Positions 3 to 17,278 of a DNA stretch of 20,000 nt are shown here, piece by piece. The stretch's first letter is position 1. Every line of letters begins with the position of its first letter. The stretch is from IMG/VR virus record IMGVR_UViG_3300034013_000894; one strand, written 5' to 3'. The translations under genes were made by a program, and so were the position numbers. Under the pieces are notes generated by a model, which was not told the origin of the DNA, ran no database searches, and saw only the letters and a list, made by a program, of their open reading frames with translations. This stretch comes from an uncultured virus (IMG/VR IMGVR_UViG_3300034013_000894) (Duplodnaviria; Heunggongvirae; Uroviricota; Caudoviricetes).

Positions 3-629
3 CGCCGCTTTGCCGTGAGTGAGGTCAATACCAAGTTCCGAGGCAACAAGGCATTCTTTGCAGCCCTCCACGAGCAGCTTGAGAATGGTGGATTGCAGGG
101 CTTGCTCTTTGATTTGAAACGTCGCAAGCTCGCCGGCTTCCACCCGCGTGCACGTATCCCGCAGACCTCCGCCCTTGCCAAGCAGAAGCTGCAGAGCCTG
201 GACAACCTCGATGCCTGGTGGTATGAAAGCCTGAGCCGTGGTAACCTTGGTGATGTGGACCCTGCTGTCGGTGAGTGGGACAGCAAGGACGGCACGGGCA
301 TTTGCGTGTTCTTCACTGAAGACCTGCAACGTGGTCTGGAAGAATATCTCCGCAAGCTCGGTGACCGCCACCTGGCTCGCCGTTCGACCCAAACGGTCAT
401 TGGTGATCGCTTGAAGAAGCGTCTCGGGTCGAGTGTCCGGCATGTCCGCCTGGCTGTGCCGTCCGATAGGATGGACATCAAGGCGGATAGCTCCGGCCGG
501 GCTTATGGCTACAAGATACCGAGCCTGCAAGAATGCCGCGCCATGTTCGAAAGCCAGCTGGGCTCGAAGCTTCCTTGGACCATAGATGCGGAGGACATTG
601 ACCCCGTGCTGGACGTGGAGGAACTCTGA
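3..629 (+). CDS. Primase-helicase (SF3/D5-type, NrS-1-like helicase), C-terminal part; 5' end outside window
   Basis: Frame open from base 3: RRFAVSEV (arginine-finger-like RRF), then KAFFAALHEQLENGGLQGLLFDL...IPQTSALAKQKLQSL...WW, the tail typical of phage primase-helicases. Confidence 0.75.
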   Translation, partial: RRFAVSEVNTKFRGNKAFFAALHEQLENGGLQGLLFDLKRRKLAGFHPRARIPQTSALAKQKLQSLDNLDAWWYESLSRGNLGDVDPAVGEWDSKDGTGICVFFTEDLQRGLEEYLRKLGDRHLARRSTQTVIGDRLKKRLGSSVRHVRLAVPSDRMDIKADSSGRAYGYKIPSLQECRAMFESQLGSKLPWTIDAEDIDPVLDVEEL

Positions 630-3113: not shown

Positions 3114-4339
3114 CCTTTCACGCATACAACCTGGCGGAGCTCATAGACCACCTCGACGAGGTCAGCCTGTGCAGCCATAACGGCGTCGATCGACTTGTAG
3201 GCTGCGGGCGTCTCATCGATGACGTCCTCATCCTTGCGGCACTCGACCCCTTCAGTGGCCGCAATATGGTCTTCCAGCGTGAACCGCTTGCGCGCTTCAT
3301 TGCGGGACATTGCTCGGCCTGCACCATGGGAGCACGAGCAGAAGCTCTCACGGTTGCCCTTGCCGCGGACGATGAAGGATCGAGCGCCCATGCTGCCGGG
3401 TATGATGCCAAGCTCGCCCTCCTTTGCGGACACCGCACCCTTGCGCGTCACAAGCACATCTGCTCCGAAGTGCCGCTCGTGAGACACGTAGTTGTGGTGA
3501 CAGTTCACCGCTTCCTCGTCAACGGAGAAGGGCTTGGGCACGGCCTTGGCCAAGGCACTCATGGCCGCCCGCATCATGACTTCACGATTGGTGCGGGCAA
3601 AGCGTTGTGCCCACGCTACCGCCTCCATGTAGTCGGCAAAGTGCTCAGTGCCTTCAGGCAGGTAGGCCAGGTCAGCGTCGGGCAGGTTCACAAACCACTT
3701 GCGCATATCCTGCTTCGCCAGTTCGATGAAGTAGGACCCAATGCGGTTGCCAATACCGCGCGAACCAGAGTGCAGCATTATCCACACACGATCCTGCTTA
3801 TCCAGGCATACCTCGACGAAGTGATTGCCCGTGCCAAGGGTGCCGAGATGGTGGACCGCTCGGTCCGCCGCCCGCTCGATCTTGGGATGCTTGTCGACAA
3901 TCCGTCGAAGGCCAGAGTGGAGGCTGGGGACACCACCAGTGAAGAGCCAGTTGCTTTCAGCCGGAAGCTCGCCCCAAGCCCCCCGGTCATTTCGCCCACC
4001 ATTGTCAGTCCGACCATGCGGAATGGCCTCCTCGATTGCCGTCCGCAAGCCGGACAGGTTGTCAGGGAGGTCCGAGGCCGTGAGACTGGTGCGATGAGCC
4101 ATCATGCCGCAGCCAATATCGACGCCAACGGCTGCCGGGATGATCGCCCCTTTGGTGGGGATAACCGAGCCGACCGTAGCACCCATACCCCAATGCACAT
4201 CAGGCATGATGGCCACGTGCTTGTGGATAAAGGGCATGCTCGCGATATTGTCAAGCTGCTGCCGAGCCTGGTCTTCAACGGGCACTCCGTCGACCCAGGC
4301 CTTTATGAGCCCACCCTGGGCCCCTTCAAATACTTGCAT
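3110..4339 (-). CDS. rtcB: RtcB family RNA ligase (3'-phosphate/5'-OH)
   Basis: MPDVH, VGVDIGCG, GTLGTGNHF, LHSGSRG, NCHHNY, TRKGA, IPGSMG, SHGAGR, DETPAAYK motifs all intact; GGAG RBS. Confidence 0.98.
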   Translation of the reverse strand: MQVFEGAQGGLIKAWVDGVPVEDQARQQLDNIASMPFIHKHVAIMPDVHWGMGATVGSVIPTKGAIIPAAVGVDIGCGMMAHRTSLTASDLPDNLSGLRTAIEEAIPHGRTDNGGRNDRGAWGELPAESNWLFTGGVPSLHSGLRRIVDKHPKIERAADRAVHHLGTLGTGNHFVEVCLDKQDRVWIMLHSGSRGIGNRIGSYFIELAKQDMRKWFVNLPDADLAYLPEGTEHFADYMEAVAWAQRFARTNREVMMRAAMSALAKAVPKPFSVDEEAVNCHHNYVSHERHFGADVLVTRKGAVSAKEGELGIIPGSMGARSFIVRGKGNRESFCSCSHGAGRAMSRNEARKRFTLEDHIAATEGVECRKDEDVIDETPAAYKSIDAVMAAQADLVEVVYELRQVVCVKG

Positions 4340-4893: not shown

Positions 4894-4928
4894 GTGTTGG
4901 AGGCTCCCGTCTCGCTTCAAGATAGTTC

Positions 4929-4957
4929 ATTATACCATCCTTTCAAACAAAAGTAAA
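4929..4957 (-). promoter_or_regulatory. Sigma70-type promoter for the glycosylase-rtcB-ligase operon
   Basis: Minus strand TTTACT-N17-TATAAT with extended -10 TGg. Confidence 0.8.
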
Positions 4958-4988
4958 TGGCCCTTGGTCAAAAACCAAGAGCCATTTT
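4948..4988 (-). terminator. Intrinsic terminator whose U-tract overlaps the -35 of the next promoter
   Basis: Minus strand TGGCTCTTGGT-TTTTG-ACCAAGGGCCA (one G:U pair) followed by TTTACTTTT. Confidence 0.7.
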
Positions 4989-5016
4989 GACGGGTTGAAT
5001 TATTTTGTTGGTCTGT

Positions 5017-5379
5017 TCAGCCAGACAGCTCAGGCGGCTCGTCCCGAAGGGCCGCAACCTGTTCTGTCGACATGGCCACCCAGGCGCCGGTCAGATGCTG
5101 CTTGGTATCAGGCCGGTTCAGGAGGTGCACGCCTTCACCCAGGTTTTCGTGATAAAGGTATCGCTCCCCATCATCAGAGACCTTCTTGTCTCCCTTGATC
5201 CAGGCATGCCGCAAGAAGGTGGGGTCATCCACAGTGTAGAAGTCCACATAGCTTGCATCCTCGGTGTCATAATCAAAGCCGATTGGCTCAATGGCGTAGG
5301 TGCCATCACCCCGCAGGCCTGTAACCCGCGCTGTCACGGCGACCACATCGCCGATCCTGATTTCTTGTTTGTTGTCCAT
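5017..5379 (-). CDS. Hypothetical protein, 120 aa
   Basis: TAATG coupling to upstream gene; acidic ORF in a coupled chain. Confidence 0.75.
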   Translation of the reverse strand: MDNKQEIRIGDVVAVTARVTGLRGDGTYAIEPIGFDYDTEDASYVDFYTVDDPTFLRHAWIKGDKKVSDDGERYLYHENLGEGVHLLNRPDTKQHLTGAWVAMSTEQVAALRDEPPELSG

Positions 5380-5717
5380 TATCCCACCTTTCTATACTCT
5401 GCCGGGTAACCGGGTTGCTTGCGCTTCTCCAGTTCACCCATACTCGCCAGTCGGCTTAAACAGGCGGCCGCATTGCGAACATTGCGGCCTGACCTCTCGG
5501 CCAAGGCCTGGGCACTTACCCAGTCCTCTGCCATATCGCGGGCCACGGCAGTAATCCCGCCGTCTGCACCTGGCCGCCAATTACCTGTTGGAGTGCCGGG
5601 CTCTTCGCCTAAGGCAATGGCTGCTTCCAGGTTGTCCGCTCTGTCAAGCATGGCCTGACCTTTGGCCATCAGCCTGCGACCTTCGCGGCGCAGCCATTGG
5701 GGATCATGCTCGCTCAT
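5379..5717 (-). CDS. Hypothetical protein with probable C-terminal winged-helix DNA-binding domain
   Basis: VSAQALAERSGRNVRNAAACLSRLASMGELEK...AEYRK is wHTH-like; start moved to ATG 5717 (ATGA overlap). Confidence 0.6.
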   Translation of the reverse strand: MSEHDPQWLRREGRRLMAKGQAMLDRADNLEAAIALGEEPGTPTGNWRPGADGGITAVARDMAEDWVSAQALAERSGRNVRNAAACLSRLASMGELEKRKQPGYPAEYRKVG

Positions 5718-5848
5718 GCAGGCGCCAGTCCCGCCGTGCACTGTGCAAGGCTCAAGACCTGCATTGCCACGATCAACCACATAAACACCCTCTCTCCCCA
5801 CGACATGGGTAAAGCTGGCATTCGGTCTTCAAAATCGATCATCGCCAT
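5714..5848 (-). CDS. Small hydrophobic protein, 44 aa (not in ORF track)
   Basis: MAMIDFEDRMPALPMSWGERVFMWLIVAMQVLSLAQCTAGLAPA; AAGGAG RBS; stop overlaps next ATG. Confidence 0.55.
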   Translation of the reverse strand: MAMIDFEDRMPALPMSWGERVFMWLIVAMQVLSLAQCTAGLAPA

Positions 5849-5982
5849 GCTCTTCTCTCCTTCCGACCTTGTCGGGTTGCGGCGCAAGCCTTGCTAATCC
5901 GGGCGAGGCGCCTTTGTTCGTCCCACGCTGCGATGTGCGCAAAGTGGTATCCATCGAAGTATGACGCCTCGCTGTAGATCAT
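5839..5982 (-). CDS. Small basic protein, 47 aa (not in ORF track)
   Basis: MIYSEASYFDGYHFAHIAAWDEQRRLARISKACAATRQGRKERRAWR; ATGA overlaps at both ends. Confidence 0.55.
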   Translation of the reverse strand: MIYSEASYFDGYHFAHIAAWDEQRRLARISKACAATRQGRKERRAWR

Positions 5983-6386
5983 GCAGCCATTCTCCGGCCA
6001 AGGCGCTCGGCCGTTCCAGGACCAGGCACCACGCCCTTCTGCCGCAGGTGATCCATGACCGCTTGGAAGGTCATTGTCTTGTCCCAGCCGGCCCGCTTCA
6101 CCGCTTCGCCTTGCAGACGAATTGCTTCGCGGCGTAGGGCTTCGGCCTTGTCGACCGCATCCTGATGCGCATCATAGGCATCCTGCGCAAGCTTGATGAC
6201 TGACTGAGCATCCTCAAGTGTGCGGAAAGCATGAACCATATCATCCGCGCGGCGGTGGGTAGGGTTGCCATGAACAGCATCCCGCCCGTAGAGCTGACCA
6301 CCCTTGACCGACGTCACGGCCATCAGGCTGTCCAAGGTGGGCCGGCCATATCGCCGGCCAAGGACATAGAACAGTGCGGGCTTCAT
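5979..6386 (-). CDS. Hypothetical protein, 135 aa
   Basis: ATGA-coupled, GAGG-containing RBS. Confidence 0.75.
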   Translation of the reverse strand: MKPALFYVLGRRYGRPTLDSLMAVTSVKGGQLYGRDAVHGNPTHRRADDMVHAFRTLEDAQSVIKLAQDAYDAHQDAVDKAEALRREAIRLQGEAVKRAGWDKTMTFQAVMDHLRQKGVVPGPGTAERLGRRMAA

Positions 6387-6652
6387 GCGTCTTCCTCCTT
6401 GCCGAAGAGCATCTCCAGGATGACCTGCATTTGCTGGGCTGTATTGTCAGCATGCTCCTGCGTGATGCCTTCAAAGGCCTGGTCCATATCTTCCTGGCTT
6501 TCGTAGGTGAAGGCCATAATTCCCAGCTGTTCGCGGTAGTCTTCACCCTGCGCTATTAGCACCCACTGGTCGTCATACTCATCGCTCATACCCTCGCGGG
6601 TGATGAGCAGCTGCCCATGCGGCGTGGTGAACAACTTGGCAAACTCGGTCAT
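6383..6652 (-). CDS. Hypothetical acidic protein, 89 aa
   Basis: ATGA-coupled, GGGAGG RBS. Confidence 0.75.
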   Translation of the reverse strand: MTEFAKLFTTPHGQLLITREGMSDEYDDQWVLIAQGEDYREQLGIMAFTYESQEDMDQAFEGITQEHADNTAQQMQVILEMLFGKEEDA

Positions 6653-6918
6653 TGCAAGGCCTCCCTTCTTTTGCGTCCGAGCTCCGTGAGGTGGGCGCGG
6701 AACAGTCCATCATACTCGTCGATCCACACGCGAACCAGACCGGCTTTTTGGGCATCCGCCAAGGTGCCATAGGCTCGCATTGGGTTCTGATCAAAGTCCG
6801 CCATGGCATTGCATGGCCGGCCTTCGAAGTGAGGGCCTTTCCATCCCACAACCAGGGCATCAAGCCGGGCTGCTCGGGCGGTGTGGGCACTCAGGTCAAA
6901 CTTGGGCATATTGTTCAT
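6649..6918 (-). CDS. Hypothetical protein, 89 aa
   Basis: ATGA-coupled, GGAG RBS. Confidence 0.7.
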   Translation of the reverse strand: MNNMPKFDLSAHTARAARLDALVVGWKGPHFEGRPCNAMADFDQNPMRAYGTLADAQKAGLVRVWIDEYDGLFRAHLTELGRKRREALQ

Positions 6919-7319
6919 CGATCAAACTCCGTGCAGAGGACGACCGCTGGCTGCTTACCGCCCTTCATTTTCACGGCTCGGACAGGAAGCTCAGTCCCAT
7001 CTTTGAGCCGCACCATTACTGCTACCCCTCGAGGCTTGCCCAGCATATTGTGGGCAGTTTGCATGGCTTGCAATGTTTCGTTAATTCCCATGGGTTTTCT
7101 TTCTAAGGTTGGTATTGGAGCCAACATAGCATTGACCCAGGCAATATCTTCTTCAGTAGCTTCGCGGACTCGATTGACTGTCTCAATACGGCCAATGTCT
7201 TGTTGAGCTTCTGCTTTAGCCCCTTCTGCGGTAATCGCTGTATAAAGCGCGCACCCACGAGAAGTATCGACATAAAAGGTTTTGAGCATGCCTTCAAGTT
7301 GTTGTCTACGAACACCCAT
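6915..7319 (-). CDS. Hypothetical protein (start uncertain; possible internal start at 7091)
   Basis: ATG 7319 directly follows the ATPase stop; 3' end ATGA-coupled to the next gene. Confidence 0.6.
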   Translation of the reverse strand: MGVRRQQLEGMLKTFYVDTSRGCALYTAITAEGAKAEAQQDIGRIETVNRVREATEEDIAWVNAMLAPIPTLERKPMGINETLQAMQTAHNMLGKPRGVAVMVRLKDGTELPVRAVKMKGGKQPAVVLCTEFDR

Positions 7320-7320
7320 A

Positions 7321-8535
7321 TCAGTAGGTTTTCGTCTTGGTGGCAATCACGTCTTCCTGCCACTCATTGTCATCGACCGAGGCGATGCGACGATTGCCAG
7401 TAGGTTCGCCATCTTCATCCAGCATGGCATCACGCAAAGGGTCTTCAGGCTTCCAATAAGGTTCACCACCAAACATGGGAACATACTCAGTTTCCCACAC
7501 GCATGCGTCTTTGTAGACGTCGCAGACCTGGCCAACAAGGCGGAGGCTGAGGTTGTAAAACTTGTGGCGATTGCAGTCGATCCAGTCAAGAACCTTGTCG
7601 CCATGCTCGGGAGGTAGACCAAACTGCTTTTCAATCATGCCGCCTGTGCCACCCGCAACCTGGCGGATGCGGATCATGAAGTCACGCTCACTGCGCAAGG
7701 TAAGGCACAGATAGTTGCTGCGATCGATGAGAGCCTTAAAGTGCTCAGCATCTTTTGTGCCACGGGCAATAACCCCTTCAAAGTCAATGTTGGTCAAGAA
7801 AATTACACTGCCTTGGAACAGAAAGGATCGTGCTATACCATAGTCTTCAAGCCACCGGGCTTCTTTGCGCCAACTAATGCGGCGATGGTCAAGCTCAGTG
7901 TCAAGAGCAGCTTTAAGGAGGTTCAGCGCATCAGGATCGTGGAAAACTGCATCACAATCATCTAGCACCAATACTCCGCCTTTGCGCATATACCAGAGAG
8001 CCTGGTAAAGGCCAACAGCTGTAATGCTACCAGAGATGCTGTCGTAAACTCCGGATATGCCTGCAGACTTGCAGTATTCAATAGGGTCATCCCCGAACCC
8101 TTGCCTGGCTTCAATTTCCACAAAGTTTGTCCGACCACTTTCTTCAAGATCGCGACGAACTTGGTAGGACTTGCCAAGGCCAGGAGGACCAGAGCAGATG
8201 AGACCGGCCGTGCCGCCTTTGAGAATAACCTTACGGCTATGGCGGGCATAAGCGGAGTAACGAACCGTGATGCGGGTCGCAGCTTCTTCATCTGTTTCTT
8301 CGGGGAGGTCAGGTGGCAGGTTCGCCAAGAGGAAGCTGGTTGGAGCATGCCCGCGGGCTGAGGCTTGGCTTAAAGAGCCTGTGCCATTTTTGAGCCGCGA
8401 CAATACACTGCTAACGCTGGCCGCAGAGGTGCTTGCCCCAGGAACAGTGCGACATACAAACTCCGCAATTTCTTGGTTATTGGCATTGGGGTTCTTCGAC
8501 TTATAGTCGATGATTGCTTGGGTAACTGGACTCAT
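7321..8535 (-). CDS. Phage AAA+ ATPase with N-terminal helical (HTH-like) domain
   Basis: Walker A GPPGLGKS, Walker B VLVLDDCD, sensor IFLTN, arginine finger ALIDRS; AAGGAGG RBS; N-terminal ~50 aa similar to domains in 9554-10174 and 13493-13789. Confidence 0.88.
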   Translation of the reverse strand: MSPVTQAIIDYKSKNPNANNQEIAEFVCRTVPGASTSAASVSSVLSRLKNGTGSLSQASARGHAPTSFLLANLPPDLPEETDEEAATRITVRYSAYARHSRKVILKGGTAGLICSGPPGLGKSYQVRRDLEESGRTNFVEIEARQGFGDDPIEYCKSAGISGVYDSISGSITAVGLYQALWYMRKGGVLVLDDCDAVFHDPDALNLLKAALDTELDHRRISWRKEARWLEDYGIARSFLFQGSVIFLTNIDFEGVIARGTKDAEHFKALIDRSNYLCLTLRSERDFMIRIRQVAGGTGGMIEKQFGLPPEHGDKVLDWIDCNRHKFYNLSLRLVGQVCDVYKDACVWETEYVPMFGGEPYWKPEDPLRDAMLDEDGEPTGNRRIASVDDNEWQEDVIATKTKTY

Positions 8536-8580
8536 AACTTGCCTCCTTATCTGGTATCAGATTTCCCGTCTGATGTAATC

Positions 8581-8609
8581 ATTATGGCTTAGGCCAATTC
8601 CATTGTAAA
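8581..8609 (-). promoter_or_regulatory. Sigma70-type early promoter upstream of the AAA+ ATPase
   Basis: Minus strand gTTTACA-N17-CATAAT, A-rich tract upstream. Confidence 0.75.
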
Positions 8610-8630
8610 CGCCAAACTGGCGGATTATTT

Positions 8631-8804
8631 TCAGCGATCGATAAGGACTTGTTCAGTCCGTGTCACACTGACCAGCACCAGACCACGCTCCTTGGCAAAG
8701 TCTTCAGCTCGTTCCCGCATTGTGTGGCCGAACGCCATGACAGTGCGCCCACTGCGTGCCCGCGCTTCATAGGACACGTCCCGCTTCTTTGCAGTGGCTG
8801 CCAT
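8631..8804 (-). CDS. Small protein, 57 aa (not in ORF track)
   Basis: MAATAKKRDVSYEARARSGRTVMAFGHTMRERAEDFAKERGLVLVSVTRTEQVLIDR; TGATG-coupled. Confidence 0.65.
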   Translation of the reverse strand: MAATAKKRDVSYEARARSGRTVMAFGHTMRERAEDFAKERGLVLVSVTRTEQVLIDR

Positions 8805-9052
8805 CAGCTGCGCCCCCGAACTTTGCTGACATCATAGCCGGCCTGCTTCAGTGCTTCGATGCGGTCTTTTGCCGGAACCCAGTCGATACCGACATGGCCC
8901 TCACGACGCTCCGCAATGTTGCGGCGCTGAGCTTCTGCTTCGGCTTCAACCTCAGTCAAGCCTTTGGCATCTTCATCAAAGAGGCTGCCGTTGTTGCGGA
9001 TCGGATCGATCTTGGCGATCACGGTCCACACAGGGTTAGGATCAGTGGGCAT
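8804..9052 (-). CDS. Hypothetical protein, 82 aa
   Basis: TAAGGAG RBS before ATG 9052 (MPTDPNPVW...). Confidence 0.75.
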   Translation of the reverse strand: MPTDPNPVWTVIAKIDPIRNNGSLFDEDAKGLTEVEAEAEAQRRNIAERREGHVGIDWVPAKDRIEALKQAGYDVSKVRGRS

Positions 9053-9072
9053 CGTATTGCTCCTTAATTGCA

Positions 9073-9127
9073 TGGCACTTCATCCTTGGGGTGGACCCGT
9101 AAAGGCCCACCCTCTGGGGAAGCGTCA
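9073..9127 (-). repeat. 55-bp intergenic hairpin repeat, copy 1
   Basis: Identical to 9496-9550 except one base (9087 T vs 9510 C); core stem GGGTGGGCCT-TTAC-GGGTCCACCC on the minus strand. Confidence 0.95.
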
Positions 9128-9475
9128 GGCTTCTTCCTGCTGTTTGGCCGCTTCGTATGCAATCGCTTCAGCGATCAGATCATCCAGGCCTGCAAGAACA
9201 GCCTTGTGCTGAGCTTCGACGTTCTTCTCGGTGCAGCGATCCGCACTTCGTGCAGCCAGCTTGTGGAAGTCACGGAAGATGGCCGACCGAACAAACCCGC
9301 CACCGACTGTGCAGGCTCCGACATAGGTGGTCAGCCCGCCATTGCTGGACTTCGATGTGGTGATCCGCAGCTGACGCTTGGTGCCTTCTTCCTGGTCACC
9401 CCCATTATCCGCGAGGTCGACGAAGGTCTCAGCCTTCCAGCCGTTCAGGCCTTTACGCATGCTTGTCTCAGTCAT
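9125..9475 (-). CDS. Phage hypothetical protein, 116 aa
   Basis: AAGGAG RBS; sits exactly between the two 55-bp repeats. Confidence 0.8.
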   Translation of the reverse strand: MTETSMRKGLNGWKAETFVDLADNGGDQEEGTKRQLRITTSKSSNGGLTTYVGACTVGGGFVRSAIFRDFHKLAARSADRCTEKNVEAQHKAVLAGLDDLIAEAIAYEAAKQQEEA

Positions 9476-9495
9476 TATCAGTCTCCTTGTTTGGT

Positions 9496-9550
9496 TGGCA
9501 CTTCATCCTCGGGGTGGACCCGTAAAGGCCCACCCTCTGGGGAAGCGTCA
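9496..9550 (-). repeat. 55-bp intergenic hairpin repeat, copy 2
   Basis: Matches 9073-9127 at 54/55 positions; lies between a stop codon and the next RBS. Confidence 0.95.
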
Positions 9551-9553
9551 AGC

Positions 9554-10174
9554 TTAGGCGGCAGCCGCAGCTTCAGGCGCTGGCTTTTCAGCCTTGGCCG
9601 GGCGACGCATCGGGACGTTCTTGCCCTTGCGGCGCATCCCAGCCGCCACACTGGCGATCGACCGTGCCGAAGTGTTGGCCTTCGGAAACTCCTTGATGAC
9701 CGCGTTGATGATGTCCAAGTAGGACAGCGCGGGGTCCATCAGGAGGCTCTCGACCAGGCGGGTCAGACCGCCGCGGGCCTCGCCACTGCCCGTGTCCTTG
9801 GCCTTTTTGACCTTGGCAGCCGCACGTTCCTGAGCTTCGCCGTCCGTCGAAGGTGCTTCGGCCTGTTCGGTCGGCTCGTCGGAGGCATCACCGGTCGGTT
9901 CCGTTGTGCCGTCGGCTTCCTCGGAGGCTTCCGGCTCGGGGTTATCGGCCGGAGCCTTTTCGAGAGCCTCGTCGGCCTCATCCATATCGGCCAGCGCGGG
10001 CAGCGTTTCCTTCAGCTCGGTGACCTGCTCGACTTCGAGGCCGAGCTTGCTCCAGCCAATCTTCAGCGCCTTACGGGCTTCATCAGCCTGCTCGAATGCT
10101 TGAAGGCGTTCACGACCGCCACGATCTTCGTCGGTGGCAATTTTAACCAGTTCCTTGACTTGTTCGATATTCAT
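9554..10174 (-). CDS. 206-aa protein: N-terminal helical region, acidic low-complexity linker, C-terminal basic HTH-like domain
   Basis: GGAAGGA RBS before ATG 10174; E/A/P/T-rich linker; C-terminal LSYLDIINAVIKEFPKANTSARSIASV domain shared with two other ORFs. Confidence 0.8.
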   Translation of the reverse strand: MNIEQVKELVKIATDEDRGGRERLQAFEQADEARKALKIGWSKLGLEVEQVTELKETLPALADMDEADEALEKAPADNPEPEASEEADGTTEPTGDASDEPTEQAEAPSTDGEAQERAAAKVKKAKDTGSGEARGGLTRLVESLLMDPALSYLDIINAVIKEFPKANTSARSIASVAAGMRRKGKNVPMRRPAKAEKPAPEAAAAA

Positions 10175-10228
10175 AGTTTGGGTTCCTTCCATTGTCCTGA
10201 CTTGCACCATTGCTCGTCTTGATACCCT

Positions 10229-10257
10229 ATTTTAAGCTTGAGGTGAAGCTTTGTAAA
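10229..10257 (-). promoter_or_regulatory. Sigma70-type early promoter
   Basis: Minus strand TTTACA(AAGC)-N17-TAAAAT. Confidence 0.75.
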
Positions 10258-10303
10258 TACTAAACGGGGAGAAAATCTTTACGCCCGCCAGTTTTTGTGA
10301 GGC

Positions 10304-10753
10304 TCAGCTTTCTTCCTCATCGTCATTGCTGGGATTGGTGTTGATGACCACGTGGCCAAAGGTCAGTCGACCTCCTGCATAGTCCCAAGGTATTCCTGCG
10401 CGTATACCGCAATCCGAGCTGCATTCAAACTCCTGCTCAAACTCAACTTTGGCCCCGAGGTGCTTAATACCACCGCCGGCTGTGAGCTTGTCCTGGTCAA
10501 CCGCTTCCCAAGGGATAGCTGAGATGCATCCTGCGTCGACCGAAAAGTCCACGCCGATCGAGCTGGGATAAATGCCGTCACCCCACAACGTGCTCAGCAC
10601 GCAAATGCGATGATTATTGGGCAGAACAAATGCGCCTTGCAGGCAACTGTCGCCAGCGATGCACTGCTTAAGAAAGACGTCGTAATCTTCCTGCTTTAGG
10701 GCGTAGCACGGGTCGCCCACATAATACGTGCCGGGCTTCATGGTCGTGGTCAT
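10304..10753 (-). CDS. Phage hypothetical protein (YYVGDPCY / WGDGIY / VDAG motif family)
   Basis: AAGGAG RBS; motif set commonly seen in phage proteins; acidic tail. Confidence 0.75.
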   Translation of the reverse strand: MTTTMKPGTYYVGDPCYALKQEDYDVFLKQCIAGDSCLQGAFVLPNNHRICVLSTLWGDGIYPSSIGVDFSVDAGCISAIPWEAVDQDKLTAGGGIKHLGAKVEFEQEFECSSDCGIRAGIPWDYAGGRLTFGHVVINTNPSNDDEEES

Positions 10754-10761
10754 CAATTTAC

Positions 10762-10789
10762 TCCTTTTCTCTCAACGGACTGGATGGCC
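10762..10789. repeat. 28-bp direct repeat, copy 1 (partner 11052-11079)
   Basis: tccttttctctcaacggactggatggcc vs tcctttcctctcaacggactggatggcc, 1 mismatch; includes the AAGGA RBS on the minus strand. Confidence 0.9.
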
Positions 10790-10794
10790 AGTCT

Positions 10795-11040
10795 TCATTT
10801 ATGCTCTGGAATCTCCACAATAACTAGCGCTCCCTTGCGTCTTGCATTGTGCCCGATAGCCAACATCAAAGCCGATGAATAAAAAGCGGATGATGCTATA
10901 AACTCATCGCAGAACCGCGCCACATAGCGAGGCTTTTCATGGCCGCAATATTCTGGGCTAATGCGATAGCGAAGATCGATTGCGCCGTTATCGTGGCTAA
11001 TTGGGTTAGGATTATGTTCCATTGTATTGGGATCACTCAT
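10795..11040 (-). CDS. Hypothetical protein, 81 aa
   Basis: TGATG-coupled; bracketed by the 28-bp direct repeats. Confidence 0.65.
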   Translation of the reverse strand: MSDPNTMEHNPNPISHDNGAIDLRYRISPEYCGHEKPRYVARFCDEFIASSAFYSSALMLAIGHNARRKGALVIVEIPEHK

Positions 11041-11270
11041 CAGTTGCTCATTCCTTTCCTCTCAACGGACTGGATGGCCCAGGTCCGCACCATATCCAAG
11101 ACCGCATCAGCAGCCGTCTCGAAGGGGCCGACGGTGTCGCCGAGCAGGACTTCGCCAGACTCTTCATCCACCATGCGCTGCCGATCGACCTCGCCCCAGT
11201 AGTAGCCAGGCTCGCAGCCAAACCACTCGTCAGAGGAGTGCCACTTGACGCACCAGTCTTTGACCTCCAT
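11040..11270 (-). CDS. Hypothetical acidic, Trp-rich protein, 76 aa
   Basis: TGATG-coupled at both ends. Confidence 0.7.
   Translation of the reverse strand: MEVKDWCVKWHSSDEWFGCEPGYYWGEVDRQRMVDEESGEVLLGDTVGPFETAADAVLDMVRTWAIQSVERKGMSN
11052..11079. repeat. 28-bp direct repeat, copy 2
   Basis: Matches 10762-10789; here it encodes the C-terminal AIQSVERKG of 11040-11270. Confidence 0.9.
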
Positions 11271-11392
11271 CAGCCGAGCTCCGCTGAGGCTTGAACGCGC
11301 CAGTATTTAGCCTGTGCGGCTGTCATAGTGCGCTGGTATTCAGCTCGTGCTTCTTCTTCTTCTTTGGTAATAGGTGCGGCAATATTTTCCAT
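11270..11392 (-). CDS. Small protein, 40 aa (not in ORF track)
   Basis: MENIAAPITKEEEEARAEYQRTMTAAQAKYWRVQASAELG; GGAG RBS; TGATG overlap. Confidence 0.6.
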   Translation of the reverse strand: MENIAAPITKEEEEARAEYQRTMTAAQAKYWRVQASAELG

Positions 11393-11437
11393 TTTCAGTC
11401 TCCATGTTGGCGCGGATGCGTTGGAATGTGGCTGGGT

Positions 11438-11617
11438 TCATATTGAAAAAGCGTGAGGATTGCTGCTTTTAGTATCCAGCCCGCGCACTTCGTAATGACT
11501 ATCTTCCTCCCATTTTTCTTCGATCATGCCTATGGCATATGTTTCTGCATCTAAATCAGTCCTCAAGACTGGAGCGATTTGAGCGATGATAGCTGCGACT
11601 TGTTCTTCGTGGGTCAT
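11438..11617 (-). CDS. Small acidic protein, 59 aa (not in ORF track)
   Basis: MTHEEQVAAIIAQIAPVLRTDLDAETYAIGMIEEKWEEDSHYEVRGLDTKSSNPHAFSI; AAGGA RBS. Confidence 0.6.
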   Translation of the reverse strand: MTHEEQVAAIIAQIAPVLRTDLDAETYAIGMIEEKWEEDSHYEVRGLDTKSSNPHAFSI

Positions 11618-11746
11618 TTCAAAAATCCTTTTTGTGTTTCTGTTTTTGCAATATTAGCAGCATTGGCGGGGAATGTCCCCTTGCTGTAAAACCCTGATAG
11701 GGCCGTTGGTCATGTAGCTCATTACGTGGATCATGGGTTAATCTCC

Positions 11747-12082
11747 TTACTTGCTTTCTTGTTGGATGCGGATTGAGTAGCGGGTGCCCTCGATGGTGAC
11801 GTAGCGAGTGGATGACTGCCGTCCGTCAATCTGAGTGTTCCATGACTCCGCAGTCAGCATTGCATCTTGCGTGCCGTTGAGGTGGTCGAATGCGGGGCAA
11901 CCTTCAAGACCAACCTCGAGACTGGCGAACAGACTGCTGATGACCTCGTCTTGGGTCATTGTCTTGTGGAGGAATGGGGCGGGTGTGTCCGTGATCGCGT
12001 CCTGGCAATCAGTGCAGATTGCGGTATCGATCATGCGGGTCATATAATCGCAGTGTTTGCATGCAGTGCGAGGGGTGGTCAT
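11747..12082 (-). CDS. Hypothetical protein with N-terminal CxxC...CxxC (possible zinc ribbon), 111 aa
   Basis: AAGGAG RBS before ATG 12082; CKHC and CTDC; first gene after promoter 12112-12140. Confidence 0.7.
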   Translation of the reverse strand: MTTPRTACKHCDYMTRMIDTAICTDCQDAITDTPAPFLHKTMTQDEVISSLFASLEVGLEGCPAFDHLNGTQDAMLTAESWNTQIDGRQSSTRYVTIEGTRYSIRIQQESK

Positions 12083-12111
12083 TGGTAGTCTCCTTCGTTG
12101 CTTGTGTAAAC

Positions 12112-12140
12112 AGTATGTCTTGGGTTGTTTGCTTTGTAAA
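12112..12140 (-). promoter_or_regulatory. Sigma70-type early promoter
   Basis: Minus strand gTTTACA(AAGC)-N17-CATACT. Confidence 0.7.
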
Positions 12141-12210
12141 CCCTTTGCGAGGTAATTATTCTTTGCAGTGCAGCGATTGCTACCCAGAAGTGCAGCAAAC
12201 CGGGCTTTGA

Positions 12211-12488
12211 GCAGCATCCGTCCGACCTGTCCGGAGCCTGTCCGACCTTGTAAACGGTAGGTCGGACGGAGAAAAGTGTTTCGGATCAGTAGCTTATGGG
12301 TCGGTTTTCGTCTCCGTCCGACCTGTCCGACCTATTTTTAGCTCAGCGTATGTGCGTGGCGCACGAGCGTGCGTATACGTAAGGAAATAGGTCGGACAGG
12401 TCGGACGGTCGGACGAATATAATAAAAACAACTACTTATGAGCTTCGGTAGGTCGGACGTGCAGCGGACGCTGTCGGACGGATGCTGC
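12211..12488. repeat. 278-bp nested inverted-repeat array of GTCCGAC/GTCGGAC; candidate replication origin
   Basis: 16-bp perfect outer IR (12211-12226/12473-12488), 24-bp perfect inner IR (12314-12337/12385-12408), 12-bp IR (12217-12228/12259-12270), ten GTCCGAC copies, two IHF-consensus-like sites. Confidence 0.9.
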
Positions 12489-12586
12489 GCAACTTGATAG
12501 CGATTGCTGAGTTGTGTGCCAGTCCGAGCGGATTGCTTGTCTGGTTCCTAGGACTGCGGGCAGGGGATCGACCAGCAGTAAGGAAG

Positions 12587-12802
12587 CTAGCTTGGGGTCC
12601 AATACCCTTGTTTGTCCCCAAAAGTGTCACCCGCTTCCAAGGCGTGGGCGCGCGAGTTCCAGGCTCCCGATCGCAGGTTAGCGATTGCTGCATCAGGTCC
12701 CCATGCGAGCTCTGCGAGCCTCCGGGCTTGGCGCTTGACCGAGGCGCGGGCTACTTGGTCACGGAAGTCCTGGTCAGGGCTCCGGCGATAGGTGCGGCTC
12801 AT
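12587..12802 (-). CDS. Small basic hypothetical protein, 71 aa
   Basis: GGAGG RBS; MSRTYRR start. Confidence 0.6.
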   Translation of the reverse strand: MSRTYRRSPDQDFRDQVARASVKRQARRLAELAWGPDAAIANLRSGAWNSRAHALEAGDTFGDKQGYWTPS

Positions 12803-12805
12803 GGC

Positions 12806-13162
12806 TCAGGCCTCCTTTTCGTCTGCGAGGATCGCTTGGTGGACGTCCTTGGCCCAGGCGTCGTTCCGAGGTGCGGGCTGCTCACCGAAGTCAAGCCACT
12901 GTGCGGGCTGCTCACCGAAGTCAAGCCACTCCCAAAGACCCATCAGGGGGCCCCAAGTGAACGTTCCCCATGACCAATCAGCTGCTCGCCGGAACGGTTT
13001 CATCCCATTTGGGATTTTCGCAGCATCGAAGGTCTTAGTGACCAAATCCCGCGTCTCGTCTTCCGGGTCATCCGGCGACCAGGTAGGAACCTGCATCACA
13101 CCTATGAGCGCACCAGTGAAAATGTTGCGCAGCGCTATATGGCAGTGGGTAATGGGTAACAT
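12806..13162 (-). CDS. Hypothetical protein, 118 aa, with an internal 10-aa duplication
   Basis: TAAGGAG RBS before ATG 13162; WLDFGEQPA occurs twice. Confidence 0.6.
   Translation of the reverse strand: MLPITHCHIALRNIFTGALIGVMQVPTWSPDDPEDETRDLVTKTFDAAKIPNGMKPFRRAADWSWGTFTWGPLMGLWEWLDFGEQPAQWLDFGEQPAPRNDAWAKDVHQAILADEKEA
12871..12930. repeat. Perfect 30-bp tandem duplication (in frame)
   Basis: gtgcgggctgctcaccgaagtcaagccact x2. Confidence 0.97.
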
Positions 13163-13202
13163 ATCAGTTCTCCTTATGCAAAGCATATCAGTTTTCCTAT
13201 GT

Positions 13203-13222
13203 GGGGTGGGCGAACCCACCCC
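13203..13222 (-). other. Intergenic GC hairpin with UUCG loop
   Basis: Minus strand GGGGTGGG-TTCG-CCCACCCC with no U-tract. Confidence 0.7.
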
Positions 13223-13229
13223 TATACTC

Positions 13230-13439
13230 CTATACATAATTTAGAACTTCAACGACGTCTTGGCGTTCCAAGAGTATGACGTCTTCGCTATCTGCAATTC
13301 CTGCTCGAATGACTGCGTATATTGCTGCAAGCATTTGACCGTCATCGTTGAATTGATGGGAGTTGATTGCTGCGATGACGTCGAAGTCACCGTCCTTTCG
13401 CAGTTTGCCGATTGTGGCGTATTGGGCCGGAATGTTCAT
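13230..13439 (-). CDS. Hypothetical protein, 69 aa
   Basis: GAAAGGA RBS; clean ORF. Confidence 0.7.
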   Translation of the reverse strand: MNIPAQYATIGKLRKDGDFDVIAAINSHQFNDDGQMLAAIYAVIRAGIADSEDVILLERQDVVEVLNYV

Positions 13440-13492
13440 TTTGAGTGTTTCCTTTCGTTAGGTGGGTGGGACCAAGAACCCCTATATGGGCA

Positions 13493-13789
13493 TCAGCCAA
13501 CCATGTTGAGCTTCAAACGCAGTGGCACATTGACACCTTTCTTGCGCATGACGCAAGCTACACTGGCCACAGACTTGGTTGACGTGTTGGCGGATGGGAA
13601 CTCTTCGCGCACTTTGGCAACAATGTCAGCATAGGACATGGTAGTATCGCGCACCAGGTGTTCGACCATTCGGCTCAGCCTACCATCTGTCTTGGGCAGG
13701 TCAGAGGTGAGGCGGATGAGGCCTGCAGACAGGGCATCAGCGACAGTCATGCTCATGACGTCGACGTCAGCAATGTTATTCTCAGTCAT
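13493..13789 (-). CDS. 98-aa protein consisting mainly of the shared HTH-like domain
   Basis: MSYADIVAKVREEFPSANTSTKSVASVACVMRKKGVNVPLR, a clear paralogue of the 9554-10174 C-terminus; AAAGGA RBS. Confidence 0.8.
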   Translation of the reverse strand: MTENNIADVDVMSMTVADALSAGLIRLTSDLPKTDGRLSRMVEHLVRDTTMSYADIVAKVREEFPSANTSTKSVASVACVMRKKGVNVPLRLKLNMVG

Positions 13790-13836
13790 AATAATATCCT
13801 TTTATTTGCTAGAATTAGTAAGTGTTTACAAAACAG

Positions 13837-13986
13837 TCAGCTGCGCACAAACTCGATTTTTACGTCGACGTCCTCCGGCTCCTCTTCGCGGAGCATGCAA
13901 GCCATGTCTATTGCGGCTTGAGCACAGTCACCCTCATAGGGCACAGTGGACCAATCGCCGCTACGGACTACTACTTTATATATCAT
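13837..13986 (-). CDS. Small acidic protein, 49 aa, first ORF of the leftward block (not in ORF track)
   Basis: MIYKVVVRSGDWSTVPYEGDCAQAAIDMACMLREEEPEDVDVKIEFVRS; GAAAGG RBS. Confidence 0.6.
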   Translation of the reverse strand: MIYKVVVRSGDWSTVPYEGDCAQAAIDMACMLREEEPEDVDVKIEFVRS

Positions 13987-14018
13987 TTGCTTGCCTTTCT
14001 GCAGCATTAGTTAGTTGC

Positions 14019-14096
14019 TTGAAACGAAGTTAGTCAGATTAGAGCAGTTTCAAGACATGTCTTGCAGTCGCTCAAGTGTTCGTTTGTTCGTTTCAA
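14019..14096 (-). other. 78-nt symmetric imperfect palindrome (candidate structured leader RNA/sRNA or operator)
   Basis: TTGAAACGAA/TTCGTTTCAA, GAGC/GCTC and central CAAGACATGTCTTG share one symmetry axis (14057.5). Confidence 0.6.
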
Positions 14097-14103
14097 TACA
14101 TAC

Positions 14104-14132
14104 TTTATAGCTCAAAACGCAGGCTTTGTAAA
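14104..14132 (-). promoter_or_regulatory. First leftward sigma70-type promoter
   Basis: Minus strand gTTTACA(AAGC)-N17-TATAAA with upstream A-tract. Confidence 0.7.
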
Positions 14133-15798: not shown

Positions 15799-16416
15799 TT
15801 GCTCATTTCGTTCCCGAAGCTCACCCGGTTCAGTCATGATTGGACCATTACCGAGAAGATTGATGGCACAAACGCCCAAGTCATCATTGTTCCAACCTCC
15901 GATGAGGCCGCAGTAGGGCATCATATGTCTTCATTGGCCTGTGTGGATGACTACTTGGTCTTTGCAGGGTCTCGCACTCGCATCATCACTCCCGACGCGG
16001 ACAACCATGGCTTTGCCAAGTGGGTTCAGCGTGAAGCCAATGATCTTGTGCAGGCTTTAGGTGAAGGCCGGCACTTCGGCGAATGGTGCGGACTGGGCAT
16101 TCAGCGCAATTACGGGCTCAAGGAGAAGGTCTTCGCCCTCTTCAACACTCATCGTTGGACTGGCGTCGACCTGCCTGACAGGGTGCGGGTTGTTCCGATC
16201 CTGGCTCAAGGCTATATGGAGGACGTCGGCTCCGAGGCGTTGCGCCAGATGGAGACGCTCAAGCAGGACGGGTCGCGGTTTGCCGAAGGCTTTGGCAACC
16301 CGGAAGGTGTGGTCATGCGTCATGGGCCGAGTGGCACCTTGCTCAAGAAGACCTATGACTATGACGAGCTTGGGAAGTGGGCGGAGAACCAGGCCCGCAA
16401 GGTAGGGGAGGCATAA
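15799..16416 (+). CDS. ATP-dependent RNA ligase, Rnl2-like adenylyltransferase domain
   Basis: FPK N-terminus, TEKIDGTN (I), GSR (Ia), FGEW (III), FALF (IIIa), EGVV (IV), LKK (V); no OB domain; AAAGGAG RBS before TTG. Confidence 0.85.
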   Translation: MLISFPKLTRFSHDWTITEKIDGTNAQVIIVPTSDEAAVGHHMSSLACVDDYLVFAGSRTRIITPDADNHGFAKWVQREANDLVQALGEGRHFGEWCGLGIQRNYGLKEKVFALFNTHRWTGVDLPDRVRVVPILAQGYMEDVGSEALRQMETLKQDGSRFAEGFGNPEGVVMRHGPSGTLLKKTYDYDELGKWAENQARKVGEA

Positions 16417-16531: not shown

Positions 16532-16582
16532 CCGTAGGTGCTGGTCCGCGCGGGCCCCTCACGCGTGATAGTTCGTCTCCCC

Positions 16583-17278
16583 ATGGCCAACAACAGTATC
16601 CCGTATGGTCACCCGCACAGGAAAACACTGCGCAACACAGACCTGGAGTTCCCCATGGGCGACGACGACTTTGAAATCATGGCTGATGCCGCCCTAGGTC
16701 CCGAGCCAGAGCAGGATGGCGATGCTGCCCTGCGTCTGCCTAGTGACCAGAGCTCCGGTGCTGTGCACAAGCAGTATATCCAAGATCGTTTGCGGGGAGC
16801 CCGGCTTCTCACGATGCCCACGTTGCAGGACGCTTTGTCCGCGCGGCGCAAGCGCATGTTCCTCGTTGCCCTGGCCGAGACCGGGATCATCTCGCAGGCC
16901 TGTGCCCGTGCAGGCTGGACGCCTCATGTGGCAAAGAGTGTGCGGGCAGCGGATCAGGACTTTGCGGCTCGGTGGGATGATGCTCTCGAGTTCGCGGCCG
17001 ACGCAGCGGAAGCTGAAGCTTTCCGTCGCGGCATGCATGGATACGAAAAGGACGTCTACTTCAAGGGTGAAAAGGTCGGCAAGGAGGTCATCTATTCGGA
17101 CCGCCTGCTCGAGCTGACGCTCAGGGCTCGTCGTCCTGACAAGTTCCGTGACAGCCACAAGATGGAGCTTGAGACCAAGGGCGGCGTGCTGGTTGTTCCG
17201 GCTACTCCCAATGAGGGTGACTGGGAAGCACAAAGCATGGCAGGACAGGCCAAGTATCGGGAAGCCCCCGAAGACTAA
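16583..17278 (+). CDS. Probable terminase small subunit (start 16583 or 16655)
   Basis: FLVALAETGIISQACARAG HTH, then DQDFAARWDDALE...EAEAFRRG..GYEKDVYFKGEKVG...YSDRLLELTLRARRPDKFRD, a pattern characteristic of this TerS family; sits between HNH and virion genes. Confidence 0.75.
   Translation: MANNSIPYGHPHRKTLRNTDLEFPMGDDDFEIMADAALGPEPEQDGDAALRLPSDQSSGAVHKQYIQDRLRGARLLTMPTLQDALSARRKRMFLVALAETGIISQACARAGWTPHVAKSVRAADQDFAARWDDALEFAADAAEAEAFRRGMHGYEKDVYFKGEKVGKEVIYSDRLLELTLRARRPDKFRDSHKMELETKGGVLVVPATPNEGDWEAQSMAGQAKYREAPED

Follow-up and report, generated by a model that had tools for sequence, protein, structure and literature searches.

A basic helix-turn-helix-like phage domain in three early-region proteins of an uncultured caudovirus, one of them a NrdC.10-type AAA+ ATPase

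The window analyzed here is the whole stretch of 20,000 nucleotides from an uncultured virus of the Caudoviricetes (IMG/VR record IMGVR_UViG_3300034013_000894). Its minus strand contains an early region (approximately 4900-14130) of some 22 small genes, almost none of which was assigned to a family in a PHROG scan. Three of these genes code for proteins sharing a small helical domain: an AAA+ ATPase of 404 amino acids (aa; 7321..8535), a protein with an acidic linker (9554..10174), and a stand-alone protein of 98 aa (13493..13789). An earlier note on this DNA had proposed that one helical domain is used here in three ways, that it is helix-turn-helix (HTH)-like and binds a common DNA site or host protein, that the ATPase remodels or loads it, and that an array of GTCCGAC repeats lying between these genes is an obvious candidate for its target. 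Translation confirmed the three open reading frames (ORFs) on the minus strand at these positions.

The 98-aa protein consists of a variable N-terminal part followed by the domain (residues ~36-91; nt 13517-13684), and its 50 homologs of 85-116 aa are conserved from G36 to the C-terminus. The acidic-linker protein has an N-terminal helical part, a linker rich in D, E, T and P, and the domain at its C-terminus (nt 9605-9772), and the same architecture was found in gp58 of Rhodobacter phage RcSimone-Hastad and gp84 of RcRudolph. Its ORF is open to 10210, but the start at 10174 is supported because a GGAAGGA ribosome-binding site lies before that ATG. In the ATPase the domain occupies residues 1-52 (nt 8380-8535) and is joined by a linker (~53-80) to a NrdC.10-type core (88-404). 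Three promoter-like sites were located on the same strand: TTTACA-N17-TAAAAT (10229..10257; 10/12 matches in a consensus scan) ahead of the acidic-linker gene; TTTACA-N17-CATAAT (8581..8609) before the ATPase gene, with the ribosome-binding site AAGGAGG after it; and TTTACA-N17-TATAAA (14104..14132), read by eye, which precedes a 56-aa ORF (13837-14007) with the 98-aa gene behind it. The last site was not listed by the scan since this demands a T at the end of the second hexamer, and the scan overall did not exceed shuffled sequences (8 sites found against 5.8 expected). By the position of these sites, two of the domain genes are the first and one is the second after a TTTACA promoter, as had been described.

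The 98-aa protein and the C-terminus of the acidic-linker protein were identical at 32 of 56 residues (57%; BLASTP E 2e-20) and, judged by their sequences, are plain paralogs. Pairwise BLASTP of the ATPase N-terminus against either small protein gave nothing (best E 22 and 2.6). The motif on which the earlier note had based the relationship was therefore insufficient by itself for this third copy, and profile tests were run. A 9-sequence profile of ATPase N-termini, built with those of four proteins P0059-P0062 and of four named phages, was compared by hhalign with a 51-sequence profile of stand-alone proteins, resulting in a probability of 91.5 and a P value of 8.8e-7 over 45 aligned, gap-free columns. 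A hidden Markov model (HMM) made only from stand-alone proteins was also run, with filters off, on 120 ATPase homologs comprising the window protein, P0059-P0062, and the matches listed among a total of 443 at E<=1e-5. It matched 114 of the 120 at E<=10 and 23 of them below 1e-4, and the best matches were in register at the ATPase N-terminus with the sole exception of P0170 (residues 197-218, E 1.1). The top scores (1.5e-8 to 5.7e-8) were those of ATPases P0100, P0129, and P0131, which retain the G-x-x-V-P tail. Since the window ATPase itself scored only E 0.012, it is these intermediate ATPases that carry the homology link. A joint MAFFT alignment of 37 segments was near gap-free across three helices, and AlphaFold2 models, run with family alignments for both proteins, placed helices at residues 37-48, 53-63, and 71-83 of the 98-aa protein and at 3-14, 20-30, and 38-50 of the ATPase, with matching lengths and spacing. 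A joint domain HMM detected only the three ORFs in the six frames of the window at E<=0.01, a circular count given that the model was built with these sequences included. A resemblance of the ATPase N-terminus by chance or convergence, with only the two small proteins related, would fit the silence of BLASTP and the modest score of the window ATPase, but is scarcely credible against the ungapped hhalign alignment, the in-register scores of P0100, P0129, and P0131 with their conserved tail, and the identical helix pattern of the two models. These results indicated that one domain of some 55 residues is present as paralogous copies in all three proteins and that the ATPase N-terminus shares its three-helix topology.

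The signature of the family runs from the turn into helix 3 as P-x-A-x-T-[TS]-x-[RKA]-S-[VI]-[AS]-S and continues as [LM]-[RK]-[KR]-x-G-x-x-V-P-x-R-R. Its most conserved positions among 171 domain instances were P (92%), A (86%), T (98%), S (96%), A (88%), S (93%), G (95%), and R (96%). The domain is basic: the median net charge of 152 domain segments was +3 and the median isoelectric point (pI) 10.0, with 81% of the segments having a pI above 9. In the model of the 98-aa protein (predicted local distance difference test, pLDDT, 87-90 over the domain), the domain is predicted to form a core of three helices, the second and third separated by a tight turn, as in HTH domains. A wide structure search with VIA found 11 chains at Z>=5. 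The top match was the N-domain HTH of the small terminase of phage G20C (Z 6.2, root-mean-square deviation (rmsd) 2.3 Å over 51 residues), and further matches at Z ~5 included the HTHs of SETMAR, Tc3, and mariner and the winged helices of Fur, ArgR, TrpR, and Orc1; PadR and PqqD-type peptide-binding winged helices (the latter at Z 5.5) were also found. The HTH-like character proposed for the domain was in this way borne out, with HTH domains as its best structural matches, but these Z-scores are ordinary for a small helical bundle and therefore speak for the fold and not for a particular HTH family. The domain resembles winged-helix and three-helix HTHs of the HTH_24/AsnC/MarR and the transposase or terminase kind in having three helices with a turn before helix 3 and in the basic C-terminal end of helix 3 followed by a glycine. 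It differs from them in having no predicted beta wing and a near-invariant helix 3 rich in Ser, Thr, and Ala.

Sequence databases gave no name for this domain. None of the Pfam, NCBIfam, and PADLOC models run on the three proteins matched it. Among 27 single members, sub-threshold Pfam matches were seen to DUF7669 (7/27), DUF5354 (5/27), HTH_24 (3/27), and Tc3/AsnC-type HTHs; the best single-domain match was to HTH_24 (E 1.6e-4), below the gathering score. Pfam HTH models (HTH_24, MarR, and alike) matched none of 131 representatives at E<=0.01, and the HTH_24 cut-off was exceeded, by summed score, only in relatives with tandem repeats. Five PHROG families contain the domain (34102, 35736, 17205, 17767, and 37268), all annotated as of unknown function. 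A search of PDB sequences with the domain profile gave nothing significant (best E 0.1), hits in the ESM Atlas were confined to viral AAA clusters and to viral clusters without a name, and literature searches turned up no account of the domain, of the fused ATPase, or of the array. We conclude that the domain is basic, has three helices of the HTH type, and belongs to a large phage-restricted family that lacks a Pfam model.

The core of the ATPase (residues ~80-350) was 35% identical to T4 NrdC.10 over 272 aa (BLASTP E 3e-48), and the protein fell into phrog_1250 (E 7.4e-72, profile positions 31-319 of 327). As far as sequence comparison goes, the core is a homolog of T4 NrdC.10, a family without known function, and the Walker A, Walker B, and sensor residues are kept. 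In 113 aligned homologs, G116, P117, P118, G119, and K122 of the Walker A motif (GPPGLGKS, 116-123) and D192 and D193 of Walker B (VLVLDD, 188-193) were invariant, as were N249, at the end of strand 243-248, and R272, which by position are assigned as sensor 1 and arginine finger, respectively. The ATPase model had a mean pLDDT of 91.3 and a predicted template modeling score of 0.79, with residues 1-40 at pLDDT 90-98 and a low-confidence linker. Its alpha-beta-alpha core with a helical lid matched 199 PDB chains by Foldseek at E<=0.001, all of them AAA+ proteins, and VIA aligned it with Z 10.3-12.7 over ~200-230 residues. The closest structures were MoxR-type NorQ and CbbQ (Z 12.2-12.7, rmsd 3.4-3.7 Å, 202-211 residues), followed by DnaA domain III, sigma-54 activators, RuvB, Hda, and Orc1/Cdc6 (Z 10.7-11.2). 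Since these classes lie within about 1.5 Z units, no AAA+ clade was assigned; the similarity to the DnaA and Orc1/Cdc6 cores is generic. Pfam matches at E<=1 were limited to AAA_22, AAA, AAA_16, and NTP_transf_3, all below their cut-offs; Pfam, NCBIfam, and PDB searches gave no sequence match to DnaA or Orc1/Cdc6, and the best match in a PDB sequence search was not significant (E 0.75). The GAFTGA loop of sigma-54 activators, to which the core is slightly less close than to NorQ and CbbQ, or a near variant of it was absent from the 404-aa sequence, and there was no Pfam match to Sigma54_activat. A beta-hairpin insertion of ~40 residues precedes the conserved final helix of the ATPase (~345-387; window 7321-7500) and is absent from the RcSimone-Hastad, RcRudolph, and RDJL ATPases.

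DnaA, Orc1/Cdc6, and the sigma-54 activators likewise combine an AAA+ motor and a small HTH in one chain, and MuB is another AAA+ protein with its own DNA-binding HTH. In DnaA, Orc1, and the sigma-54 activators the HTH is C-terminal, whereas the window ATPase has it at the N-terminus, on a disordered linker of ~30 residues, in the reverse order to DnaA and Orc1/Cdc6. The NrdC.10-type core was present in 1304 phage records, T4 among them and mostly of T4-like and large phages, and only seven of these covered at least 80% of the query. The family combines a constant ATPase core with a varying N-terminal part. Residues 1-69 of T4 NrdC.10 are unrelated to the domain and appear strand-prone when their sequence is read by eye, the metagenomic relatives P0151 and P0170 have yet another N-terminus, and most members from viral contigs lack the HTH domain. 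The available part of one report gives only a weak AAA motif match and no function for nrdC.10 (PMC1524935), and our literature search found no functional study of the family.

A nucleotide search of the region against phage records gave no match. By ATPase protein, the nearest named relatives were the Rhodobacter phages RcRudolph and RcSimone-Hastad (50-52% identity), and the ATPases of the Roseobacter RDJL phages were 42-46% identical; an IMG/VR contig, a 71%-complete fragment (L003, the same as G001), shared 99% identity over the ATPase. The distribution of the fusion was surveyed in the best 80 of 596 IMG/VR stretches encoding relatives of the ATPase, with 4-21 kb per locus. In 78 of these loci the match began at residues 54-80, and only in L006 and L007 did it begin at residue 1. 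The domain was not detected at E<=0.01 in any of the 78 short-form loci, and a separate domain gene beside the short ATPases was consequently rejected. Copies per phage were counted by searching whole records with A3, a 27-sequence domain-only profile. RcSimone-Hastad had three strong matches (E 4.6e-22 to 4.3e-12), in the ATPase, in the acidic-linker protein gp58, and in gp61 (78 aa, opposite strand), and RcRudolph had the three equivalent ones. RDJL Phi 1, RDJL6, and RDJL Phi 2 (G003) had the ATPase and a gp21-type copy (E ~1e-6), and G002 the ATPase and a weak copy (E 1.7e-4). In this way a fused ATPase together with free copies was found in seven cases: RcSimone-Hastad, RcRudolph, RDJL Phi 1, RDJL6, L006/G002, L007/G003, and L174. 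A dependence of the free copies on the ATPase was also rejected, since in Achromobacter phages 83-24 and vB_Ade_ART a gp21-type copy directly follows the helicase gene and the ATPase core is missing. The fused ATPase is always accompanied by free copies, and the domain is independent of the ATPase. The co-occurrence with this ATPase family anticipated in the earlier note consequently stood for the seven fused cases but not for the family at large, 78 of 80 ATPase loci having no domain and the Achromobacter phages no ATPase.

Profile A3 was also searched over 1.84 billion representatives, which yielded 536 cluster representatives (50% identity) at E<=1e-3 and 118 at E<=1e-10. Architectures were determined for 142 of 150 listed among these 536, the other eight being already in an earlier set. 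The domain was C-terminal, on small proteins of 69-250 aa, in 95 of the 142; 14 had it at the N-terminus, seven internally, and seven with little else in the protein, while 19 contained several copies. Some relatives are series of six or seven HTH repeats. Two or three copies were found in fusions of MuF, an M48 peptidase, and an ADP-ribosyltransferase (P0185, P0221, P0274, and P0320); P0257 has the peptidase and transferase with no MuF match, and P0182 and P0298 have MuF without the transferase. The copies in MuF proteins keep the full motif in the form E-F-P-D-A-x-T-T-x-x-S-I-A-S-x-K-S-x-L-K-K-A-G. Other fusions were to Schlafen AlbA_2 (P0184) and, below the Pfam threshold, to HNH (P0291; E 8.4e-4, 19.9 bits against a cut-off of 21.4). 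The phage polyvalent proteins to which these MuF fusions correspond are virion proteins, whereas the three proteins of the window belong to its early region. In its available part, the polyvalent-protein paper of Iyer et al. (2017; PMC5512222) treats the MuF-linked class as effectors injected into the host and lists "other HTH domains" as rare DNA-binding modules of polyvalent proteins, and this part neither names nor describes the domain of the window proteins. A separate search with a domain alignment (A2) detected nothing in viral contigs and five loci in metagenome contigs, of which a single one exceeded 2 kb.

Subfamilies were distinguished by helix 3. The free copies of the window, RcSimone-Hastad, RcRudolph, the metagenome contig L094, and the IMG/VR locus L174 share T-[ST]-x-[KR]-S-x-A-S-V-A, the ATPase type has S-V-S-S-V, the MuF type S-I-A-S-Y-K-S, and a helicase-adjacent type S-I-[AN]-W-Y-R-N. 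Genes of the latter are gp21 of RDJL Phi 1 (L004, 16170-16472), a gene of Achromobacter phage 83-24 (L086, 4941-5297), and gp56 of PaMx28 (L100, 6992-7471), and their position directly after a helicase gene in Roseobacter, Achromobacter, and Pseudomonas phages suggests a conserved helicase-linked role. Phages PaMx28, Xp12, and A1432 had 5, 6, and 5 domain matches, respectively, two of which in each phage fall within a single open frame of 1107-1197 aa. The PaMx28 frame is the "morphogenesis protein" adjoining the portal gene, and gp56 holds another match. Several domain-carrying phages also encode thymidylate-synthase-like, dCMP-deaminase, and nucleotide-pyrophosphatase genes.

Based on the HTH-like structural matches, the basic charge, and the portability across fusions, we predict with moderate confidence that the domain is a portable nucleic-acid tether, most likely for double-stranded DNA and with a low or subfamily-level sequence preference. 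Phages would attach it to whatever needs holding on DNA, the cargo being small variable N-terminal parts, the acidic-linker protein, HNH, Schlafen/AlbA, MuF-peptidase-ADP-ribosyltransferase proteins, and an AAA+ motor. AAA+ proteins usually recognize their targets through the N-terminal part. In the phage group of the window the tether would replace this part, and the ATPase would act on a DNA-bound target. The free copies, carrying other cargo, would sit at sites of the same kind or compete for them.

Several observations weigh against a DNA tether. The model of the 98-aa protein has no beta wing, with no strand past residue 83 and a pLDDT of 54 in the last ten residues. Z-scores of 5-6 in VIA can be attained by any small three-helix bundle, and Foldseek against the PDB gave no match better than E 0.12, its weak rows being winged helices of Fur/PerR, DeoR, and MarR. 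Helix 3 is the most conserved part of the domain (the T, S, A, and S at 98, 96, 88, and 93%), which is unusual for sequence-specific HTH families, and a fixed protein partner would account for this as well as backbone contacts would. Fusions to the ribosome modulation factor, present in 2 of 131 relatives (both among P0183-P0323; best E 1.4e-7), would point to RNA or the ribosome rather than DNA. Finally, the detected free copies with [KR]-S-x-A-S-V-A were confined to phages with the GTCCGAC array (5/5), and a specific link of these copies to the array is therefore conceivable.

In a rather unlikely alternative, the domain would be a protein-protein adaptor that resembles an HTH and docks phage proteins, including injected effectors, on a conserved host machine (such as RNA polymerase, the replisome, or the nucleoid) for takeover. 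Helix 3 and the [RK][KR]-x-G-x-x-V-P-x-R-R tail hardly vary among phages of Rhodobacter, Roseobacter, Achromobacter, Pseudomonas, and Xanthomonas, as would suit a fixed partner; MuF proteins that are packaged in the virion and bear ADP-ribosyltransferase and peptidase contain the domain, a class regarded as injected effectors in the available text of PMC5512222; and the PqqD-type winged helices among the structural matches bind peptides. However, this adaptor has no known partner, the partner would have to be very conserved since the hosts span alpha-, beta-, and gamma-proteobacteria, and the strong positive charge and the HNH and Schlafen/AlbA fusions suit nucleic acid better.

The earlier note had pointed to a specific DNA site. 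The array contains ten GTCCGAC (AGGTCGGAC) sites in both orientations (12207..12492, with the sites at 12220-12479) and includes a perfect 24-nt inverted repeat. The whole window has 12 such sites against 1.95 expected, a number reached in none of 200 shuffles. A TTTACA hexamer lies inside the array (12249-12254), just upstream of ORF 11747-12217 and with no good second hexamer 17 nt downstream, and the array may double as an operator. In RcSimone-Hastad the AGGTCGGAC array begins 5 bp past the stop of gp58, with more sites within gp58, and the arrangement in RcRudolph is the same. An inverted GTCCGAC pair lies inside the acidic-linker coding sequence (L001 5566-5615, RcSimone-Hastad gp58), where it encodes S-D-L-S-D-V-E-G, and it is conserved at the equivalent place in RcRudolph gp84. 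The array is 729 bp from the stand-alone copy in L094 and lies between the ATPase gene and an acidic-linker-type gene in L174. When the 22 early proteins of the window were compared by tblastn with six relatives' loci, only the three domain proteins had homologs: all three were matched in RcSimone-Hastad and RcRudolph, and the ATPase only in the RDJL-type loci L004-L007. The array was the only other feature common to the early regions of the window, RcSimone-Hastad, and RcRudolph.

The idea of the earlier note is attractive because only the domain proteins, together with the array, are kept in these relatives. The domain, or the free-copy subfamily with T-[ST]-x-[KR]-S-x-A-S-V-A, would bind the AGGTCGGAC iterons, the ATPase would be loaded there, and the three proteins would meet on the array as an origin, an operator, or a genome-organizing site. 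The hexamer inside the array would agree with this, as would the joint presence of array and free-copy subfamily in all five phages that have the window's kind of free copy (the window, RcSimone-Hastad, RcRudolph, L094, and L174), the array being 5 bp to 3.7 kb from a domain gene in each, and the lack of such an array in the inspected phages of other subfamilies (RDJL Phi 1, Steinhofvirus 83-24, and PaMx28). Even so, we consider it unlikely. The [KR] position and the second half of helix 3 are not shared between the ATPase-fused and the free copies, and the five phages represent two or three lineages, of which those with enough DNA all have a primase-helicase. Moreover, a scan of IMG/VR with an exact 16-mer from the array matched 95 stretches, of which 78 loci were examined. 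Twelve of the 78 had at least six GTCCGAC sites within 600 bp, and only L174 among them has the domain; the other 11, with 6-12 kb each, had no match to it at E<=1e-3.

In four of these 11 loci (L123, L134, L149, and L157, three of which are related at the DNA level) the array is 16-354 bp from a gene for a protein of 548-579 aa with DUF5906 (E ~1e-21). This protein was 32% identical over 419 residues (E 1e-58) to the helicase and C-terminal part of RcSimone-Hastad gp42, a primase-polymerase/helicase with Prim-Pol, PriCT_2, and DUF5906. The window encodes the C-terminal 208 aa of such an enzyme, cut by the window edge (3..629, plus strand), and this product was 47% identical to the C-terminus of gp42 and 31% identical over 199 residues (E 5e-17) to the DUF5906 protein of L134. 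A primase-helicase was present in every array phage of the window's group with sufficient DNA (the window, L001, L002, and L174), the L094 sequence being too short to reach it, and a homologous DUF5906 protein was found in 8 of the 16 array-bearing loci examined. None was found in the examined sequence of the remaining seven, some of which look like 9-bp tandem repeats and not origins. There was likewise no array in PaMx28, Xp12, A1432, and RDJL Phi 1, which have more distant homologs of the primase-helicase.

The P4 alpha-type primase-helicase uses an iteron origin (P4 ori/crr). The GTCCGAC array similarly consists of short iterons in both orientations, ten of them clustered in 260 bp, that travel with a primase-helicase gene and adjoin the DUF5906 gene in the four viral contigs. 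Unlike in these contigs, in the window's group the array is 4-12 kb from the primase-helicase gene, in the early region next to the domain genes. Considering these data, the array is more likely the iteron origin of a P4-alpha-like primase-helicase than a dedicated site of the domain. The C-terminal part of the primase-helicase, for which the product of 3..629 is the candidate in the window, would read the array, which in the window's group would just happen to be located among early genes. The array is therefore no longer the obvious target of the domain: its conservation with the free copies in five phages stands, but is set against 11 array loci without the domain, four of them beside a DUF5906 gene.

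A very unlikely further possibility is that the domain binds RNA or the ribosome and that the early proteins act on translation or RNA processing. The basic charge of the domain, the fusions to the ribosome modulation factor, and the RtcB and RNA-ligase-like genes of the window would be in line with it, but these fusions are confined to two relatives, the other informative fusions and neighbors are all DNA enzymes (helicase, HNH, and primase), and the structural matches are DNA-binding domains.

An RtcB-type RNA ligase (3110-4339, minus strand; phrog_1075, E 2.8e-152) and an ATP-dependent DNA ligase (1956-3125, minus strand) flank the early region, and an RNA-ligase-like protein is encoded at 15799-16416 on the plus strand (phrog_548); together they hint that cleaved tRNA or other RNA is repaired in the infected cell. 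A diverging plus-strand block contains a small terminase (16538-17278; phrog_4044, E 8.3e-40). A second, different small-terminase match (1011-1556, plus strand; phrog_800, E 3.6e-11) adjoins the primase-helicase gene and an endonuclease VII-like gene (1522-1959). Two successive intergenic gaps of the minus strand contain a 73-nt direct repeat (9060-9132 and 9483-9555; 92% identical). Its copies fold as GC-rich hairpins (-30.4 and -31.7 kcal/mol; z -2.5 and -3.5) that lack a T-run, and each copy has the ribosome-binding site of the following gene at its end (9125-9475 and 8804-9073). No Rfam family was found in the window, and the repeat may be an RNA stability or processing element. Finally, a perfect 30-nt tandem duplication (12871-12930) would double ten residues in frame in a 143-aa ORF (12806-13237, minus strand).

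The proteins described here are not a new kind of system: they combine an unnamed HTH family, wider than the earlier note had seen, with an AAA+ motor bearing an N-terminal HTH. The domain defines a sizeable phage family of 536 representatives, without a Pfam model or a solved relative detectable by sequence, that single phages deploy in several proteins (three here, and 5-6 matches in PaMx28, Xp12, and A1432). It connects three otherwise separate groups, namely ORFans of the early region, effector proteins packaged in virions, and ATPases of the NrdC.10 family, and the conspicuous GTCCGAC array is re-interpreted as the probable origin of a primase-helicase. Should the domain prove to be a DNA tether, the most tractable entry to NrdC.10-type motors would be the HTH-fused ATPases of Rhodobacter and Roseobacter phages, among which RcSimone-Hastad and the RDJL phages can be grown on laboratory strains. 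As a bolder and quite improbable hypothesis, the domain could be a phage "self-DNA address tag", a conserved reader of some general property, perhaps a base modification, by which the phage's own genome is recognized, and would gather injected MuF-peptidase-ADP-ribosyltransferase proteins and early proteins, including the NrdC.10-type AAA+ remodeler, on the phage genome. Were this true, it would provide the first functional handle on the widespread NrdC.10 ATPases of T4-like and jumbo phages.

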